A stretch of 40,909 bases of DNA, the filler included, from Candidatus Nanoarchaeia archaeon (GTDB lineage: Archaea > Nanobdellota > Nanobdellia > Woesearchaeales > DATDTY01): NCBI GenBank assembly GCA_035290625.1. It is 3 parts of 3 records of this genome, joined end to end, with 100 filler letters (N's around TTAATTAATTAA, not from the genome) between each part and the next. Parts side by side here need not be neighbours in the genome. Positions count along the whole stretch, not along the records: positions 3,852 to 32,835 come from DATDTY010000083.1; 2 more parts are not named here. One strand, 5' to 3'. The notes under the pieces were generated by a model. That model was not told where the DNA came from and ran no database searches. It was given only the letters and a program-made list of their open reading frames with translations. Made by a program: the position numbers and the translations under genes. Positions 3,752 through 32,935 of the stretch are shown here, piece by piece. Each line of letters begins with the position of its first letter. The first letter of the stretch is position 1.

Positions 3752-3851
3752 NNNNNNNNNNNNNNNNNNNNNNNNNNNNNNNNNNNNNNNNNNNNTTAAT
3801 TAATTAANNNNNNNNNNNNNNNNNNNNNNNNNNNNNNNNNNNNNNNNNNNN
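3752..3851. other. Artificial contig linker (N run with TTAATTAATTAA)
   Basis: 100-nt N block containing a six-frame stop spacer. Confidence 0.97.
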
Positions 3852-23509: not shown

Positions 23510-23551
23510 ATGGCAAAAAAGAGAAAGGCAGCAAAGAAAAAGAAGAGGTAA
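23510..23551 (+). CDS. Putative 13-aa basic micro-peptide MAKKRKAAKKKKR
   Basis: TATA-like TATTTAAA near 23453, SD GAGGTGA 5 nt upstream, downstream hairpin CTGCCTCAG/CTGGGGCAG plus T-rich tract. Confidence 0.5.
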   Translation: MAKKRKAAKKKKR

Positions 23552-23596
23552 AATCTTTGGACTGCCTCAGACAGCTGGGGCAGAACTTCTTCTTTA

Positions 23597-23763
23597 AGGC
23601 TGCGTTCAAATTCTCGCTTCGCTCGGATTGCCATCGGTTCGCTTTGTTATTCTCTCAGAACAGGGCTGACTTCCCAGTAAGGGACATCCCCCTGTCAGCA
23701 CGTTACGGTGTTTGTGATGGAACGCTCACAAAATGATGGCAACCTTCACTTTGAACGCAGCCT
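23597..23763. mobile_element. MITE-like element A
   Basis: Perfect 14-bp TIR AGGCTGCGTTCAAA/TTTGAACGCAGCCT, flanked by the exact 7-bp direct repeat TTCTTTA; no protein-like ORF inside. Confidence 0.75.
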
Positions 23764-23807
23764 TTCTTTAAGCAAAGCATAAATACACAAGATATTTCTT
23801 ACCGCTT

Positions 23808-25001
23808 ATGCTTATCGGACTCGTCGGCAAGCCGAATGTTGGAAAATCGACGTTCTTCAAGGCGGCAACCCTGGCTGAGGTTGAGATTGCCAATTACCCC
23901 TTTGTCACAATTAAGCCGAACCATGGGACTGCCTATGTCAAGGTGGAATGCGCGGAGAAGGAGCTTGGCACGACGTGCAACCCGAGGCTCGGTTACTGCA
24001 TTCGAGGGAGCAGGTTTGTTCCCGTTGATACTATGGATGTGGCAGGCCTGGTTGAGGGCGCGCATGAAGGGAAGGGAATGGGCAACCAGTTTCTCGATGA
24101 CCTCAATCAGGCGGACGTTCTTATCCACGTCATTGACTGCGCGGGAGCAACGAATGCGAAGGGTGAGCCGGTAAGCCCCGGGACAAGGGACCCTGCCTTA
24201 GATGTGCGGTTCCTTGAGGCAGAGCTTGACCACTGGTACCTTCGCCTCATCAGGAAGGGATGGGAGAAGTTCTCGAGGGCAGTCAACCACAAAAAGTCAG
24301 ATCTTGCAAAGGCGCTGGCAAAGCAGCTCAGCAGCCTTGGGGTGAGCGACAAGCTCTGCGAAGCTGTTCTGGAATTTTTGGAGCTTCCTTTGGACCTCAA
24401 AGAGTGGAGCGACAGCCAGGTTGTGCTGTTTGCGGCAGAGCTGCGGAAGGCTACCAAGCCGATGCTGGTGGCCTGCAATAAGATGGATCTTCCCGGCAGC
24501 AAGGAGAACCTGCTGAGGCTCAGACAGCAATTTCCAGGAATAACCTTTGTAGCGTGCTCAGCTGATGCAGAGCTTGCGCTGCGGGAGGCAGCAAAGAGGG
24601 GGCTTATTGACTATATTCCGGGTGAGAATCATTTTGAGACCAAGAAAGAAGCAGCTTTGACAGACGGACAGAGGCGAGGACTCGATCAGATACAAAAGCT
24701 CCTGGCTGGCCATGCTTCCACAGGAGTGCAGGAGGCCCTGGACAAAGCTGTCTTTGAACTGCTTAAGTATATCGCAGTCTTTCCTGGAGGGGTCCATAAG
24801 CTTGAGGATTCAGAGGGCAGGAGACTGCCTGACTGCTTCCTGGTTCCCGGAGGCAGCACTGCGCTGGATTTTGCGTATCGCCTCCATACTGACTTCGGAA
24901 AGAAATTTATCCGTGCAATCGACGTAAAGACCCGGCGGACCGTTGGCAAGGAGCATGTGCTGAATCACCGGGATGTCATTGAGATCATCCATAATGCATA
25001 A
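23808..25001 (+). CDS. ychF: YchF/Ola1 family (archaeal Ygr210-type) NTPase with TGS domain
   Basis: GKPNVGKST; NYPFVTI; DVAGLVEGAHEGKGMGNQFL; NKMD; C-terminal TGS HTDFG. Confidence 0.93.
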   Translation: MLIGLVGKPNVGKSTFFKAATLAEVEIANYPFVTIKPNHGTAYVKVECAEKELGTTCNPRLGYCIRGSRFVPVDTMDVAGLVEGAHEGKGMGNQFLDDLNQADVLIHVIDCAGATNAKGEPVSPGTRDPALDVRFLEAELDHWYLRLIRKGWEKFSRAVNHKKSDLAKALAKQLSSLGVSDKLCEAVLEFLELPLDLKEWSDSQVVLFAAELRKATKPMLVACNKMDLPGSKENLLRLRQQFPGITFVACSADAELALREAAKRGLIDYIPGENHFETKKEAALTDGQRRGLDQIQKLLAGHASTGVQEALDKAVFELLKYIAVFPGGVHKLEDSEGRRLPDCFLVPGGSTALDFAYRLHTDFGKKFIRAIDVKTRRTVGKEHVLNHRDVIEIIHNA

Positions 25002-25032
25002 GGCTTAATGCATAGGGGCTTAATGCATAGGG
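24992..25032 (+). repeat. Three tandem copies of TAATGCATA(A/G)GG
   Basis: Copies at 24992, 25006 and 25021, overlapping the ychF stop. Confidence 0.7.
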
Positions 25033-25125
25033 ATTTTAACCCGGGTGGAAATCTTCTGCGGTTCATCTTATGATGCTCTTCGAATGAGAAATTTCGGTGG
25101 AATGATGCTGAAGGGCAATGAGCAA

Positions 25126-25277
25126 CTGCGTTCAAAATCTCTCGGGTGAGCGCCAAGTTCGCCTCTTGATGTTGCTGTGATGAGCGACATATCCCCGTAG
25201 GGGGCAACTCCCTTGTCGCACTGCTTGTTTCAGCGTAGAGGCTCACGAATGGGCGCGCACCTTCATTTTGAACGCGG
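25126..25277. mobile_element. MITE-like element B (homolog of A)
   Basis: Ends CTGCGTTCAAAAT / ATTTTGAACGCGG match element A termini; shares CCTTCA and the internal hairpin core; no clean TSD. Confidence 0.65.
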
Positions 25278-25324
25278 CCGTAGTGAGCACAACATTTATT
25301 AAAACAGCAATAAACTAACAGCCT

Positions 25325-26299
25325 ATGACAACATTGCGTCATGTTGAGCGGCTGGTTCTGGGGAGGCTGGAGCTTAATGCCAGAATCCAGTTTTCCACTC
25401 TTGGGAGGCAGATCAGAAAGAGCCAGCAGCAAGTGAGCTATACGGTCAATTCCCTGGTGGAGAAGGGCGTTATCCGGCAGTTCTACCCCCTTCTGGATTA
25501 CTCCAAGCTGGACAGCCTCAATTTCCGGGTGTACTTCAAGGTCGTCTATATCAGCCAGGAGAAATTCGACGAGATGGTCCAGTACCTCATCGCAGAGCCT
25601 CATACTGCGTGGATTGCAGGATGCGGAGGGAGATATGACCTGATCTGCACATTTTTGGCGCTCAATCCCTCCCAGTTTAACAAGACGTTGAGGGGCATTA
25701 TGGAGAAGTTTCCTGAGCAGCTGCAAAATTACACGGTGCTTACCACAATCGTGATTACACAGTTTGGCAGGAAATATCTCTTCCGCCATGACTTGCTTCC
25801 CGCAGTTATCATCGGAGGGGATCGGAAACCGGAAAAGGTGGATGTGACAGACCTCCATATTCTCCAGGTGCTTGCTGAGGATGGCCGGGCAAGCGCTGTC
25901 AGGATTGGGCAGCTGTTCTCGATGAGCCCGAAGACTGTCATTGAGCGGATCAAGCGCCTGCAGGAGCGAAAGATCATTCTCGGTTTTAGGCCGTCACTCA
26001 ACCCCCGGAAGATGAATTATATCTCTGCCCTGCTGACCATCAAGTACCATAACATCTCAATCGAGATGGAGAAAAGCCTGATCAGCCACCTTAAGGCGCA
26101 TCCGAACGTTGTCAGCATAGCCAAGACCTTAGGGGAATGGGATATTGAAATCATCACTGAAGCTCCGGATATCATGGAGCTCAGGAAGACTGAGATGGAG
26201 ATACGGCAGAAATTTACCGTGCTCATCCAGCAGATTGAGAGTGTCCCGCTGTATAAGATCTACAAGACGAATTTTTTTCCGAAGTTTTTGGTGGGATAA
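25325..26299 (+). CDS. Tandem-duplicated Lrp/AsnC family transcriptional regulator
   Basis: Two HTH+RAM units (LELNARIQFSTLG..., LAEDGRASAVRIG...; GRYDL, GEWDIEI). Confidence 0.88.
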   Translation: MTTLRHVERLVLGRLELNARIQFSTLGRQIRKSQQQVSYTVNSLVEKGVIRQFYPLLDYSKLDSLNFRVYFKVVYISQEKFDEMVQYLIAEPHTAWIAGCGGRYDLICTFLALNPSQFNKTLRGIMEKFPEQLQNYTVLTTIVITQFGRKYLFRHDLLPAVIIGGDRKPEKVDVTDLHILQVLAEDGRASAVRIGQLFSMSPKTVIERIKRLQERKIILGFRPSLNPRKMNYISALLTIKYHNISIEMEKSLISHLKAHPNVVSIAKTLGEWDIEIITEAPDIMELRKTEMEIRQKFTVLIQQIESVPLYKIYKTNFFPKFLVG

Positions 26300-26331
26300 C
26301 CTTTTTATACTTGGGTTTCTGGAAGGGTGCT

Positions 26332-27513
26332 ATGGGTTTTTTCCACCTTCGCGATATTGATGTACGGAACAAGAGAGTCCTCGTGCGGACAGGATTTGAT
26401 GTTCCGCTTCTTTCTGGAAAAATCGAAGATGATCGGAGGATCAGGGAGGGGCTTCCAACAATAAGGCATCTGCTTTCCAGGAAATGCAAAGTTATCCTTA
26501 TTGGCCACATGGGGAGGCCTGGAGGAAGGAGGATTGAGGAATTCCGATACGATCCTGTTGCAAAGAGGCTTTCTCAGCTGCTTGGCAGAAAGGTGGCAAA
26601 ACTCGATGACTGCGTTGGCCCAAAGGTTGCCAGGAAGCTGAAACTCCAGAAGCCAGGCCAGATCATTCTTCTGGAGAACCTGAGATTCCACAAGGAAGAG
26701 CAATCCACAACAACGGGAGAGAGGAGGAGGTTTGGCAAAGCCCTTGCCTCCTACGCAGACGTGTATGTGAATGAGTGCTTCTCAGATTCCCATCATGATG
26801 ACACCTCAATCACTGAGGTTCCTGCCCATATCCTAAGCTGCTCGGGATTCCAGCTTGATGCTGAGCTGGAACACCTGGGAAAGGCTGCAAAGCCCAAGCG
26901 GCCTTTTGTTGCGATTGTCGGAGGGAAGAAGGCTGAGAAGATCGCGACCCTGGAAAAGCTCCTGAAAAGGGCAGATGCGGTGATTGTCTCAGGCCTGATG
27001 GCAAATACCTTCCTTAAGGCCATGGGCATTGATATCCAGACCTCTCTTTATTCAGAAGAGATGCTGAGCCAGGCAAGGAAGCTCTGCAGGCATAAGAAAG
27101 TTATCCTGCCGTTTGACTGCGTCTACATCAATGGAAAAGTGAAGCAGTGCGCAATTTCTCAGTTGCCGAAAGGAGCGAGCATAATGGACATTGGGATGGG
27201 GACTCTTGCCTCTTATAAGAGGATTCTGAGGCTGGCAAGGACTGTCTTTTGGGCAGGGCCTGTTGGAAAGTTTGAAGATAAGCGTTTTGCCCGCGGCACA
27301 AAGGAGATTGCATTTTGCATTGCCAGGAGCAATGCGATCTCTATTGTCGGAGGAGGAGACACTTCTGCCGCAGTTGACCAGTTCGGGGTGGCGAGGAGAT
27401 TTACGCACATCAGTTCAGGCGGCGGAGCATCCCTTGCTGTGGTTGAGGGGAAGAAACTGCCGGGGATTGCTGCTTTGGAGGAGAGCTATAGGAAATTTAA
27501 GAAGGCTCCCTGA
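26332..27513 (+). CDS. pgk: Phosphoglycerate kinase
   Basis: KRVLVR; HMGRP; LLENLRFH; AIVGGKK; GGGDT; HISSGGGASL. Confidence 0.95.
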   Translation: MGFFHLRDIDVRNKRVLVRTGFDVPLLSGKIEDDRRIREGLPTIRHLLSRKCKVILIGHMGRPGGRRIEEFRYDPVAKRLSQLLGRKVAKLDDCVGPKVARKLKLQKPGQIILLENLRFHKEEQSTTTGERRRFGKALASYADVYVNECFSDSHHDDTSITEVPAHILSCSGFQLDAELEHLGKAAKPKRPFVAIVGGKKAEKIATLEKLLKRADAVIVSGLMANTFLKAMGIDIQTSLYSEEMLSQARKLCRHKKVILPFDCVYINGKVKQCAISQLPKGASIMDIGMGTLASYKRILRLARTVFWAGPVGKFEDKRFARGTKEIAFCIARSNAISIVGGGDTSAAVDQFGVARRFTHISSGGGASLAVVEGKKLPGIAALEESYRKFKKAP

Positions 27514-27892
27514 TCTTTTTAATGTTTTCCCAGAGTCCGATTATGTTGCTTTCAGTATCCCTGAAATAGGCTGCGTATCCCATTTCTCCTACCTGGAATT
27601 TTCCTTTTATCATTTTTCCGCCGTTTGCTTCAATCTTCTTTGATGAATCCTCAATGCTTGCCACATTGATGGTTATGACTGCTGAATCAATCGGGGCTTG
27701 TCGCCGCAGTATTCCTCCATTGATGAACCCGCTTTCCTTCGCCATGCCTTTCTCATCTGTAGGGCCTGTGCGGAGTATGACGTACTTCATCTCGGGTATT
27801 GAAACGGCATTCCAATTGAAAACAGCCTCATAGAATCTTTTTGCCCTCTCTACCTGGTCTGCAGGTATCTCAAAATGCACTACTTTGTCCAT
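27497..27892 (-). CDS. VOC/glyoxalase family protein
   Basis: VVHFEIPAD...RAKRFY; INGGI; AYFRDTESNIIGLWE. Confidence 0.9.
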   Translation of the reverse strand: MDKVVHFEIPADQVERAKRFYEAVFNWNAVSIPEMKYVILRTGPTDEKGMAKESGFINGGILRRQAPIDSAVITINVASIEDSSKKIEANGGKMIKGKFQVGEMGYAAYFRDTESNIIGLWENIKKIREPS

Positions 27893-27915
27893 TCTTTTCT
27901 CCCTCCTTGCGTGCG

Positions 27916-28731
27916 TTAGCCTGATTCCTGAATCTTCCCAATCTGAGAATTGAGCAGCCTTATCTCCTTTAGTGCAGCTCCAACATAGTCTGAACTGCCA
28001 TTTTCATCCTTCTCATACGCATAAATAATGCTTGAAGTTGCATGGATGCGGTGAATCCTCTCTTTTGGAACTGCTTCCAATGAGCCTGCCTGGGCTCCGA
28101 TGCCGGGTATGAGCAATGGGACTGGCTGCTTGAATGCTTTGGTTATCCTTTTTAGCTCTCCAGGAAAGGTTGCTCCTATTACAGAGCCTATTCCAGGGGT
28201 GTAATGCTTATTGATCATCTGGGCTATTTTCATCGGGTCCTGGAATTCTGATGAGCTGGGATTGGATGTTTTTGTAAGGATATAGATGCCTTTTCCCTTT
28301 TTGCAGTATTCAAAGAAGGGCTGTAAGGAGTCTGATCCCAAAAATGGGTTTACAGTTACTGCATCTACCTCCCAGAAATCAAAGATCGCTTTTGCATAGA
28401 CTGCATTGGTTTTAGCAATATCTCCGCGCTTTGCATCTAAAATCACGATGTGATCCTTTCCTTTTGCCAGCTCGATGACCTTTTTTAATGCCCTCAACCC
28501 TTCAAATCCGTATTGCTCATAATAAGGAATGTTTGGCTTTACTGCGCCAATCGGGATGTTTTCACCGTCAATTGCTTCAATGATGTTTTTAAAAAAAGAA
28601 AAGATTGTCTTTTCAATGCCCTTATTTGTTTTATCTTTTATTGGTATCTTTTCAATAATGGGATCCAGTCCAACAGAGAGGATTGACTCTTTTTCCTTTA
28701 ATCTGTCTATATAATTCATTTTATAATTCAT
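27916..28731 (-). CDS. pyrF: Orotidine-5'-phosphate decarboxylase
   Basis: VGLDP; KPN; DAKRGDI catalytic motif; TSNP; LIPGIGAQ. Confidence 0.93.
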   Translation of the reverse strand: MNYKMNYIDRLKEKESILSVGLDPIIEKIPIKDKTNKGIEKTIFSFFKNIIEAIDGENIPIGAVKPNIPYYEQYGFEGLRALKKVIELAKGKDHIVILDAKRGDIAKTNAVYAKAIFDFWEVDAVTVNPFLGSDSLQPFFEYCKKGKGIYILTKTSNPSSSEFQDPMKIAQMINKHYTPGIGSVIGATFPGELKRITKAFKQPVPLLIPGIGAQAGSLEAVPKERIHRIHATSSIIYAYEKDENGSSDYVGAALKEIRLLNSQIGKIQESG

Positions 28732-29354
28732 TTTGGCCACTTCTTCGGGTCTTTGCTCCATTCGAGGCAGGCCTGTTTTTCTTTCGGTGTTATGCACTTT
28801 TTTTCTTCTGCCGCATTCAGCAATGCTGAGAAATTAGACAGGGTTGTAAGCGTTACCCCTGCTTTTGAGAAGCCTTCCCTTGATTCCTTCATCTCATACG
28901 TGAAGATTGCAATGCAGTCTGTGACTACGCCTCCTTTGTCCCGTATTGCCTGAATCGCATTTAAGGCTGAGCCTCCTGTTGAGATCAGATCCTCTACCAC
29001 AAGGACTTTCTGACCTGGCTTTAGAACACCTTCAACCTGGTTTCCCTTGCCGTGCTCTTTTGCCTTTGGTCGGACATAGATCATTGGCTTCTTGAGCTTT
29101 GCGGCAACTAATGAGGCATGGCTGATGCTTCCTGTTGCCACTCCTGCGATGATATCAAAGCTCAGTTTTTTTTGTTGTATTACGTCTGCCATTGATTGTA
29201 TAATTGCTTCCCATTTCTCAGGATAGCTCATCAGAAGCCTGTTATCACAGTAGATCGGCGCTTTAATGCCGGAAGTCCAGACATACGGCTTTAATGGCGA
29301 TAATGTGACTGCCTTGATGCTGAGAAGGAGGCTTGCTACCTGTTCTGGAGCCAT
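28728..29354 (-). CDS. pyrE: Orotate phosphoribosyltransferase
   Basis: SGIKAPIYCDNR; YVRPKAKEHG; PRPP motif VVEDLISTGGS. Confidence 0.95.
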   Translation of the reverse strand: MAPEQVASLLLSIKAVTLSPLKPYVWTSGIKAPIYCDNRLLMSYPEKWEAIIQSMADVIQQKKLSFDIIAGVATGSISHASLVAAKLKKPMIYVRPKAKEHGKGNQVEGVLKPGQKVLVVEDLISTGGSALNAIQAIRDKGGVVTDCIAIFTYEMKESREGFSKAGVTLTTLSNFSALLNAAEEKKCITPKEKQACLEWSKDPKKWPK

Positions 29355-29519
29355 AAACTCCTGGTTTTGAGGGAGTCTTTTATAGTTTGCGGTTGCAGGG
29401 CTCCATGCAGTTAATCTCCTTATGTCCCTTATAGAAATCTAGACCAGTCTCTACTTCATATGTAAAAATGATAAATCAAAAAAATCCCATCTCCTCTATT
29501 CCAGAGGGTCGCCTAGCTT

Positions 29520-29666
29520 CTAGAATCTTCGTGGCTTTTTTTTACGGAAGCACTCTCTGCAGTATACTGGCCTGTCTCCTGCTGGCTTGAACGGAACTTC
29601 GCATTCTTGGCCGCAGTCTGCACAGGTAGCTTTGTGCATTGTTCTTTCCCCAAAATCTCCTTGCAT
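29520..29666 (-). CDS. CxxC-x17-CxxC zinc-binding domain protein, 48 aa (frame not in the ORF track)
   Basis: MQGDFGERTMHKATCADCGQECEVPFKPAGDRPVYCRECFRKKKPRRF. Confidence 0.9.
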   Translation of the reverse strand: MQGDFGERTMHKATCADCGQECEVPFKPAGDRPVYCRECFRKKKPRRF

Positions 29667-29754
29667 TTGTTTTTCCTCTGCATAAAAAAGAACGAGCCTT
29701 TCTTATGGTACGAGGGAGAATTCATGGCGGGTTTATAAACTTTTCCCCTGGCAC

Positions 29755-29992
29755 GGGCTCAGTAGAAAGCCTTGCTGTGGCTTGCGAGTGAGCTCCTTCT
29801 CACTCGCTCACAAGCCACCGGTTGCCACAGGTACTCAAAAATGCTTCACATTTTTGGTCGCTCCTTCGGAGCAGTTCGGCTCGCATTGTACTCTGAATAA
29901 ACCGGCATTCCCCGAATGGGGCTTCCCCGTTGTCGGTCTGCATTTGAGCCGAGCCTCACGAAGGGCGGCAACGACGGCTTTCTGCTGAGCCC
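29755..29992. mobile_element. MITE-like / structured RNA element C
   Basis: 17-bp TIR GGGCTCAGTAGAAAGCC/GGCTTTCTGCTGAGCCC (one G-T); flanks CTGGCAC / CTGGCGC (6/7 TSD); several hairpins including cUUCGg; core homologous to A and B. Confidence 0.7.
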
Positions 29993-30018
29993 CTGGCGCG
30001 GCGCCCACCAACCCCTGC

Positions 30019-32835: not shown

Positions 32836-32935
32836 NNNNNNNNNNNNNNNNNNNNNNNNNNNNNNNNNNNNNNNNNNNNTTAATTAATTAANNNNNNNNN
32901 NNNNNNNNNNNNNNNNNNNNNNNNNNNNNNNNNNN
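32836..32935. other. Artificial contig linker
   Basis: 100-nt N block with TTAATTAATTAA. Confidence 0.97.

Follow-up and report, generated by a model that had tools for sequence, protein, structure and literature searches.

The described systems that come closest to the elements discussed here are the insertion sequences (IS) of the IS5 family and the MITEs (miniature inverted-repeat transposable elements) derived from them. The elements in question, A, B and C, lie in a stretch of 40,909 nucleotides (the window, i.e. the whole of the DNA analysed) joined from three records of a Candidatus Nanoarchaeia archaeon of the order Woesearchaeales (assembly GCA_035290625.1); all three are on contig C83, which spans only positions 3852-32835, between the N gaps at 3752-3851 and 32836-32935. 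They share with IS5-family IS and their MITE derivatives the GG-ended terminal inverted repeats (TIRs) of 14-16 bp, the target duplications of 8-9 bp and, in the partner IS, a putative DDE transposase of about 280 amino acids. They differ in that their interior is not an IS shortened by deletion (0 of 31 loci), is common to many TIR classes and contains a covarying rod that very probably ends in a triplex. The Correia/NEMIS, ERIC, BOX and QMITE elements and the MITEs of Sulfolobus are likewise intergenic, multicopy and modular, with stable stem-loops (available part of PMC10969869), but ours stand apart by a putative fixed tertiary element conserved across an order and by a fixed distance from a TATA box.

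IS5 of E. coli inserts upstream of promoters at sites of stress-induced duplex destabilization (PMC5493358, in part), whereas here the insertion near promoters is genome-wide and has a sharp offset of 15-18 nt from the archaeal TATA box. Major-groove triples occur in the expression and nuclear retention elements (ENE, and the double-domain dENE) of plant and fungal transposon RNAs and in the telomerase triplex (PMC13541005, in part); those are U·A-U rich RNAs with a poly(A) tail or a pseudoknot, while the motif described here is G-C rich, has its third strand directly after the hairpin and may be DNA. REP/REPIN elements and the hairpins of IS200/IS605 resemble our elements in their short GC hairpins, GNA loops and possible folding as single-stranded DNA. 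However, they depend on HUH transposases and lack IS5-type TIRs and 8-9-bp duplications. The orientation bias of IS200/IS605 arises from single-stranded DNA of the lagging strand (PMC3971601, in part), unlike here, where a replication bias held in only one of four genomes. The word "triplex" does not occur in the available part of the MITE review PMC10969869, nor is it mentioned in that of a survey of archaeal IS (PMC13343696). A search of mainly open-access literature yielded nothing about this family, triplexes in prokaryotic MITEs or archaeal IS targeting at an offset from TATA, although MITE catalogues in supplements such as that of PMC11602168 could contain these sequences. The novelty lies in the core of a MITE, where bases covary three at a time and position by position, from C-G·C to T-A·T, in parallel register.

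Three-way covariation in the core

An earlier note, made from the sequence of the window alone, had described A, B and C as MITE-like elements with a covarying internal RNA core; its placement of the three cores, of their GTTCG and CTCAC(G/A)AA anchors, of the second helix and of the long terminal helices is correct. In the alignment the core is made up of a first pyrimidine run (columns 76-79), a loop (80-82), a purine run (83-87), a linker (88-92) and a second pyrimidine run (93-96). Among the 142 cores of this genome that could be parsed (of 188 hits), a T-A pair at 76/86 is accompanied by T in column 95 in 16 of 16 cases, and one at 77/85 by T in column 94 in 8 of 8. The foreign cores (105 parsed of 119, from 44 genomes) behave in the same manner: T95 is found in 25 of the 29 cores with T-A at 76/86 as opposed to 2 of the 73 with C-G, and T94 in 15 of 15 with T-A at 77/85 as opposed to 4 of 89. 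In these foreign T-A cores the neighbouring column remains C in 27/29 and 15/15 cases, respectively.

The association is not confined to a few lineages. In a tree that comprises 202 copies and was computed with masked cores, the pair and the third strand change on the same branch in 22 of 25 and 11 of 12 cases (null maxima 9 and 6; 1 each for a control column), and the triple changes recur on many branches, under 27 and 18 TIR types, with the control column silent. A set of 74 held-out copies, found with a pattern that let the three triad positions vary freely, has C-G·C or T-A·T in 73 copies at each of the three positions. A further 57 cores (parsed of 98) have 7 TAT, 49 CGC and 1 CGT at the lower position, the upper position being invariant.

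The partners of the third strand, 85-94 and 86-95, through which A-to-G changes in the G-run find their match, are in parallel register with a fixed offset of +9. Such a register points to a triple helix, since Hoogsteen triples produce it and a Watson-Crick hairpin, a dimer or the symmetry of a double strand cannot. Judging from this covariation, the apex of the element very probably forms an intramolecular triple helix of three, often four, pairs. The earlier suggestion that the spare CCC strand serves a switch or a triplex is therefore borne out as regards the triplex, while the antiparallel switch is not supported in view of the parallel register: no one antiparallel register covers both 85-94 and 86-95. 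A UNCG register on the minus strand was also considered and dropped, as it conflicts with the covariation of 76-86 and 77-85. Within the core, mutual information is highest between columns 83 and 87 (A goes with A, G with either G or C); they may keep the number of triads at four by lengthening the triplex at its top or bottom.

Family, fold and mobility

The elements, first described as a family of three, are 3 of about 176 copies. An iterated profile, which has no hit in the reversed genome, gives 188 hits in the actual one of 1.37 Mb, and these merge into 176 loci with a median identity of 54% (maximum 98.8%). Full copies are 133-297 nt long, with clusters near 145, 160, 200 and 240 nt that result from the addition of hairpin modules of about 42 nt on the 5' side. 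Nineteen of the 123 full copies overlap crude open reading frame (ORF) calls. The family is short, non-coding and multicopy, and it occupies about 2% of the genome. Of 150 genomes in the order, 46 are matched by a covariance model built from 46 sequences, with up to 19 candidates scored in each genome and the unpublished G131 counted, and 104 have no match. A comparison with Rfam gives 0 matches at the gathering threshold, and the three weak ones up to E 10 are not on A, B or C. In a draw from the phylum, 29 of 150 genomes match and the 28 others all belong to the same order, the share of other orders in the draw being unspecified. The copy number per genome ranges from 1 to >100, with at least 104 copies in G073. 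The core pattern has at least 123 matches over species genomes and 0 in viral contigs; a stricter version failed to recover A, B and C. Among the 80 matches listed, 50 are titled Woesearchaeota, Nanoarchaeia or Nanoarchaeota and 1 "archaeon"; the other 29 are titled "uncultured Methanosarcinales", a title that reflects loose labelling at submission or else an occurrence beyond DPANN.

The claim that fold is conserved over sequence is supported. In this genome ten pairs in helices P1, P2 and P3 exceed the maximum of a tree-based null, and in 90 foreign sequences, whose alignment leans toward the model, 84.5% of the cells pair as compared to 60.8% after shuffling and 35-45% after sliding (P2 97%, P3 83%, P4 57%, P5 85%). 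P3 contains a tandem T·C/C·T mismatch on the plus strand, present in 98-100% of copies and flanked by covarying pairs, which corresponds to tandem G·A in a Py-GA-Pu context on the minus strand. A side hairpin with tandem GA is found in 83 of 228 copies, 45 of which have a GAA loop. The two variable linkers of 16-21 nt do not pair with each other, and their longest match to the genome (12.0-12.1 nt, against 11.6-11.7 nt for shuffled linkers) indicates no clear target, so the guide role once proposed for the element finds no footing here. Folding of the interior as a K-turn was rejected by eye, as the GA pairs sit two pairs off the bulge. Full cruciform extrusion is disfavoured by reasoning only, because some 36 bp of linker would need melting. 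Two groups of copies deviate from the common fold: L154, L217, L215, L158 and L163 (unparsed rows) keep the TIRs and the rod but have a different apex without C/G runs, and in the lineage of L105, L103, L109 and L110 Watson-Crick pairs replace the tandem mismatch of P3 while the triplex is retained.

The MITE-like, mobile character of the elements is confirmed by their TIRs, their duplications and one empty site. TIRs of 14-16 bp with the form GG(C/T)N6(G/C)AAA are present in 123 of the 171 loci with flanks, and although there are 63 different left 14-mers, both arms agree within each copy. Target duplications are 8 or 9 bp long depending on the subfamily; 50 of 123 copies have one with at most one mismatch (33 perfect), the maximum after shuffling being 4. 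The empty paralogous site is on C81, opposite a copy on C44, and near-identical copies (up to 98.8%) occur at unrelated sites. By their anatomy, the elements are very likely non-autonomous DNA transposons moved in trans by a diverse clade of IS5-like elements of about 0.9-1.0 kb. The autonomous, transposase-bearing copies with the same TIRs that the earlier note had asked for are indeed found, as IS5-like elements in related genomes. A multicopy IS of 967 bp at G000:C49:19040-20006 (L111) encodes a 284-residue IS5-like transposase, whose only hit is to NF033579 (98.9 bits, under the 140-bit cut-off), and nine such transposases have invariant D, D, E and Y-R-E-K residues. The relatives of this IS in the order have TIRs that reproduce the TIR classes of the MITEs, identically or nearly so, and the same 8-9-bp duplications. 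One or another of 12 sampled IS loci agrees in at least 12 of 13 TIR bases with 39 of the 123 own copies and with 44 of the 105 foreign ones. In this genome the partner that matches the MITEs is known only from truncated ends: two ends with a MITE-type TIR are cut off by contig ends, and one of them adjoins the tail of an IS5-like transposase. Such IS5-family ends are presumably IS903-like.

The divergent TIRs had been read as a sign of selection at the RNA level. The variants have their counterparts in the TIRs of the order's autonomous IS5-like elements, so the "covariation" of the termini reflects the specificity of transposases, each of which wants two like ends. The core is absent from all 31 autonomous IS loci examined, and interiors are 81-85% alike under different TIR classes, which together suggests that the core is a passenger that switches ends. 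Separately, the 967-bp IS has its own derivatives of 197-219 bp on C15, C17 and C30, which lack the structured core. Other movers were considered. IS6, a guess based on TIR likeness, was dropped as the resident IS6 and its close relatives end in GG(T/C)(T/A)AAGTCAAC, unlike the MITE consensus; an IS1634 element has other ends; and the ISL3, IS1595 and Mutator-type Pfam families were not found in this genome. The genome does contain an IS6-family element that is present in several copies, has 9-bp duplications and encodes an N-terminal zinc finger (G000:C49:1-915, L012), a 32-bp palindromic two-end remnant (C67:39801-39832) and a 2.3-kb contig with an IS1634-family transposase (G000:C61, L001). 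Further collapsed repeats at G000 contig ends comprise two TGT-ended families (9 and 8 places), which we take to be IS481-like, IS200/IS605-like ends (6) and a hairpin repeat (11).

The MITEs and the IS5-like IS insert at the upstream edge of BRE/TATA (the TFB recognition element and TATA box), about 16 nt from TATA and in either orientation. In 78 of 123 copies an end is 10-22 nt away from a TATA-like motif, with a peak at 15-18 nt, as compared to a random baseline of 2.4% and to 20/123 and 7/123 in control windows; the same offset is seen in 84 of 118 foreign copies and in 12 of the 16 IS with clear ends (21 examined). Typically, some 45-46 nt separate the element from the next, leaderless start codon, and the promoter is faced by either end (33 vs 37, 8 both). 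The sharp offset resembles the targeting of Ty3 to TFIIIB. We infer that the transposase is tethered to TBP/TFB; alternatively, a preference for DNA structure like that of E. coli IS5 (PMC5493358, in part) may be responsible.

Strand, mechanism and rival explanations

The sequence data accommodate equally well a plus-strand pyrimidine motif (C+·G-C, U/T·A-U/T) and a minus-strand purine motif (G·G-C, A·A-T), and both classes of triplex have been described (PMC13541005, in part). On the minus strand the purine motif would have the advantage that protonation is not needed. GNA triloops and purine-motif triplexes suit DNA more than RNA. The earlier statement that G-U pairs favour the plus strand is not supported: helix mismatches on this strand comprise 74 G-T and 101 A-C (p=0.049, copies not being independent), the tandem G·A is on the minus strand and only P4 leans to the plus strand (13 vs 7). 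Beside the tandem GA there are 20 C·A as opposed to 1 T·G, favouring the minus strand, which also has the lower predicted energy in 134 of 228 copies as RNA and in 147 of 228 as DNA. That orientation shows no bias relative to the promoter (33 vs 37) or, with p=0.23, relative to read-through genes (23 vs 33) speaks for DNA. Orientation does track replication-type GC skew in this genome (119/172 on the G-rich strand; 0 of 20,000 contig-flip permutations were as strong), and several TIR subfamilies are all on one replication strand. We give little weight to this bias because IS orientation biases can also stem from clamp binding (PMC3971601, in part). The rate of change in stems relative to that in linkers is 0.22-0.61 on short terminal branches and 0.14-0.33 on internal ones; the faster erosion of stems on terminal branches fits selection via transposing master copies.

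The best overall explanation, and one that we consider rather probable, is a MITE mobilised by IS5-like transposases in which the triplex core aids mobilisation as single-stranded DNA. Each transposase requires two matching ends, so that both TIR arms change together, and the core, carried by no sampled IS, has passed between TIR sets. The single strand would form a rod consisting of P2, P3 with its invariant tandem mismatch, the two unpaired 16-21-nt linkers, P4 and the apical hairpin, and the third strand would enter the major groove of this hairpin to give the intramolecular triplex. Folding would take place in transiently single-stranded DNA, probably the minus strand, with a G·G-C/A·A-T purine-motif triplex and sheared G·A pairs. 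The fold might hold both ends together, or recruit the transposase or a host factor; core-bearing MITEs would then be mobilised more often than plain deletion derivatives of an IS, and selection would act mainly via copies that transpose. For the part concerning single-stranded DNA, taken by itself, our preference over a role as RNA is tentative and weakly inferred, and action of the fold as RNA is a possibility that we rate lower. A broader proposal, conceivable but doubtful, sees in the triplex on its rod a portable module by which non-coding passengers acquire the ends of one IS5-like invader after another and are mobilised via folded single-stranded DNA or RNA, with transposases docking at TBP/TFB-bound promoters.

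A number of observations weigh against the favoured explanation. As regards the triplex, a first test confined to this genome gave a value for pair 86-95 (0.495) that did not exceed the null maxima (0.36-0.65); in the raw alignment, three canonical triads are present in only 62 of 123 full own copies; among the 142 own cores, 18 combine T at 94 with a G-C pair, and in 13 the positions 76/86 form a G·G mismatch. Recombination of cores could also inflate the count of independent origins. As regards the movers, the complete resident IS5-like element fits the ends of most MITE copies at only 7-9 of 13 bases, the NF033579 score of its transposase is 98.9 against a cut-off of 140 bits, and IS5-like transposase and MITE co-occur only weakly (19/45 vs 29/104 genomes, p=0.09). 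As regards the single strand, we know of no single-stranded step in IS5-family transposition. Folds of TIR-less interiors with DNA parameters, in a model without a triplex term, have z-scores of only -1.1 to -1.9, the lean of P4 wobbles to the plus strand (13 vs 7) leaves the strand signals mixed, and the apical G-N-A loop fits the plus strand. The replication-strand bias is not repeated in G073 (27/70, the opposite trend), G101 (9/21) or G015 (4/7). Finally, terminal branches remain constrained, with stems below the linker rate, which is compatible with selection at the level of the host.

The alternative that survives best is the same MITE with a fold that works in a read-through or internal RNA, as a rod with a plus-strand triplex (C+·G-C/U·A-U) or as a fold of the minus strand, either protecting or ending the upstream transcript or recruiting the transposase to the MITE, in the manner of ENE helices, which sustain RNAs of eukaryotic retrotransposons; we think it somewhat unlikely. 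In the pyrimidine motif, the usual triples are C+·G-C and U·A-U, which can replace each other; a U·G-C triple is part of the telomerase RNA of yeast, and triple helices are employed by fungal as well as plant transposon RNAs (PMC13541005, in part). Long unpaired linkers would be free of cost in RNA, a gene ends toward 67 of the 95 copies whose two neighbours were both called, the RNA z-scores of A, B and C are strong (-4.4, -5.3 and -10.4, respectively, against shuffles), and the residual constraint on terminal branches agrees with such a role. Yet three or four adjacent C·G-C triples demand protonated cytosines (PMC13541005, in part), the orientation is unbiased relative to promoters or local genes, the tandem GA and the side hairpin are on the opposite strand, and the TIRs, duplications and target sites are those of DNA transposition.

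It is also necessary to consider an ordinary MITE whose covariation is mutational, i.e. due to template switching and gene conversion that perfect inverted repeats, together with shared ancestry. Template switching in quasi-palindromes yields compensatory changes without selection, TIR arms are visibly shuffled between copies, and the copies are related. Such processes, however, can neither create a mirror or parallel match of the third strand nor hold a tandem mismatch at 98-100%, and triple changes on many branches, under 27 and 18 TIR types with the control column silent, speak against them as well; this explanation was already disfavoured and is, in our opinion, very improbable. Least probable of all is a domesticated or independent structured non-coding RNA, ribozyme-like or guide-like, that rides on IS ends and serves the host: the fold is conserved across many families of the order, the core is absent from IS and the fixed-length variable linkers resemble guide pockets, but the distribution is patchy (104 of 150 genomes without match, 1 to >100 copies), the linkers have no clear target, near-identical copies lie at unrelated sites, Rfam has no match and some copies that keep the rod have a replaced apex (unparsed rows).

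Elements A, B and C and the meaning of the family

The three elements had been located correctly in the earlier note; their ends are corrected here to 23598-23762, 25124-25279 and 29756-29991, and the 7-bp duplications reported for A and C are 9 bp long and present at A, B and C. Element A, a MITE of 165 bp with TIR class GGCTGCGTTCAAA, is flanked by duplications at 23589-23597 (plus strand) and 23763-23771 (8/9 identical). Its side hairpin (23613-23625, minus strand) reads C-GA-GC-GAA-GC-GA-G, a tandem GA with a GAA triloop. The 5' anchor of P3, 23637-23642, pairs with 23724-23729 and flanks the invariant tandem mismatch (T·C/C·T on the plus strand, G·A/A·G on the minus strand). The core at 23665-23699 comprises the outer helix P4, the hairpin P5 (23672-23684) and the putative third strand (23690-23693), with predicted triads 23675-23681·23690, 23674-23682·23691 and 23673-23683·23692 and a possible fourth, 23672-23684·23693. 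A precedes the gene of an Obg-like GTPase, the ATG of which, at 23808, is 46 nt past the end of the element, i.e. at the modal distance; its likely TATA-like box (23778-23785, plus strand) was identified by eye and not called by the motif search.

Element B (156 bp) has lost the first bases of its left TIR to decay. It sits between the Obg-like GTPase gene and an Lrp/AsnC-type gene, with duplications at 25115-25123 (plus strand) and 25280-25288 (7/9 identical). Its core (25184-25219) contains P4, P5 (25193-25203) and the putative third strand (25210-25213), with the three C-G·C triads intact. A TATA-like box (25295-25302, plus strand) lies 16-17 nt past B, and the ATG of the Lrp/AsnC-type gene (25325) is 46 nt past it. 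Element C, located after the gene of the A/V-type ATPase D subunit, has 236 bp, TIR class GGCTCAGTAGAAAG and duplications at 29747-29755 (plus strand) and 29992-30000 (8/9 identical). It carries two additional 5' hairpin modules, an optional one of about 42 nt (29777-29818) and an optional double hairpin (29831-29873). Its core (29901-29937) has the lowest triad broken by a G at 29929 in the third strand, and the TATA-like box (29732-29739, minus strand) lies 17 nt outside its left end, pointing away from C. Contigs from DNA runs X8 and X13 jump 44 nt at the first module of C and are probably other copies; no joint across A, B or C was found in contigs from four DNA runs. The window contains no tRNA or tmRNA. 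Three further features were noticed by eye: a 13-codon Lys/Arg-rich ORF with a ribosome-binding-like motif directly before A (23510-23551, plus strand), a short unit with TAATGCATA in three tandem copies spanning the stop codon of the GTPase gene (24993-25032) and a small Cys-rich ORF of fewer than 80 residues (about 29500-29690, minus strand) downstream of the TATA box beside C.

It is rare for three-way covariation of base triples to be so clean, and among the natural intramolecular triplexes that evolution supports, U·A-U-rich RNAs of eukaryotes prevail. A G-C-rich motif of 35 nt with natural swap variants makes a triplex function in prokaryotes directly testable with short oligonucleotides. 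If the proposal of a portable module were true, it would mean that a natural triplex is under selection in a prokaryotic mobile element, and that IS5-family transposition includes an unrecognised step that is single-stranded or assisted by RNA. With about 2% of a small genome and a position at the upstream border of many promoters, the family is relevant to how DPANN archaea regulate their genes, and it also supplies a clade of promoter-targeting transposases.

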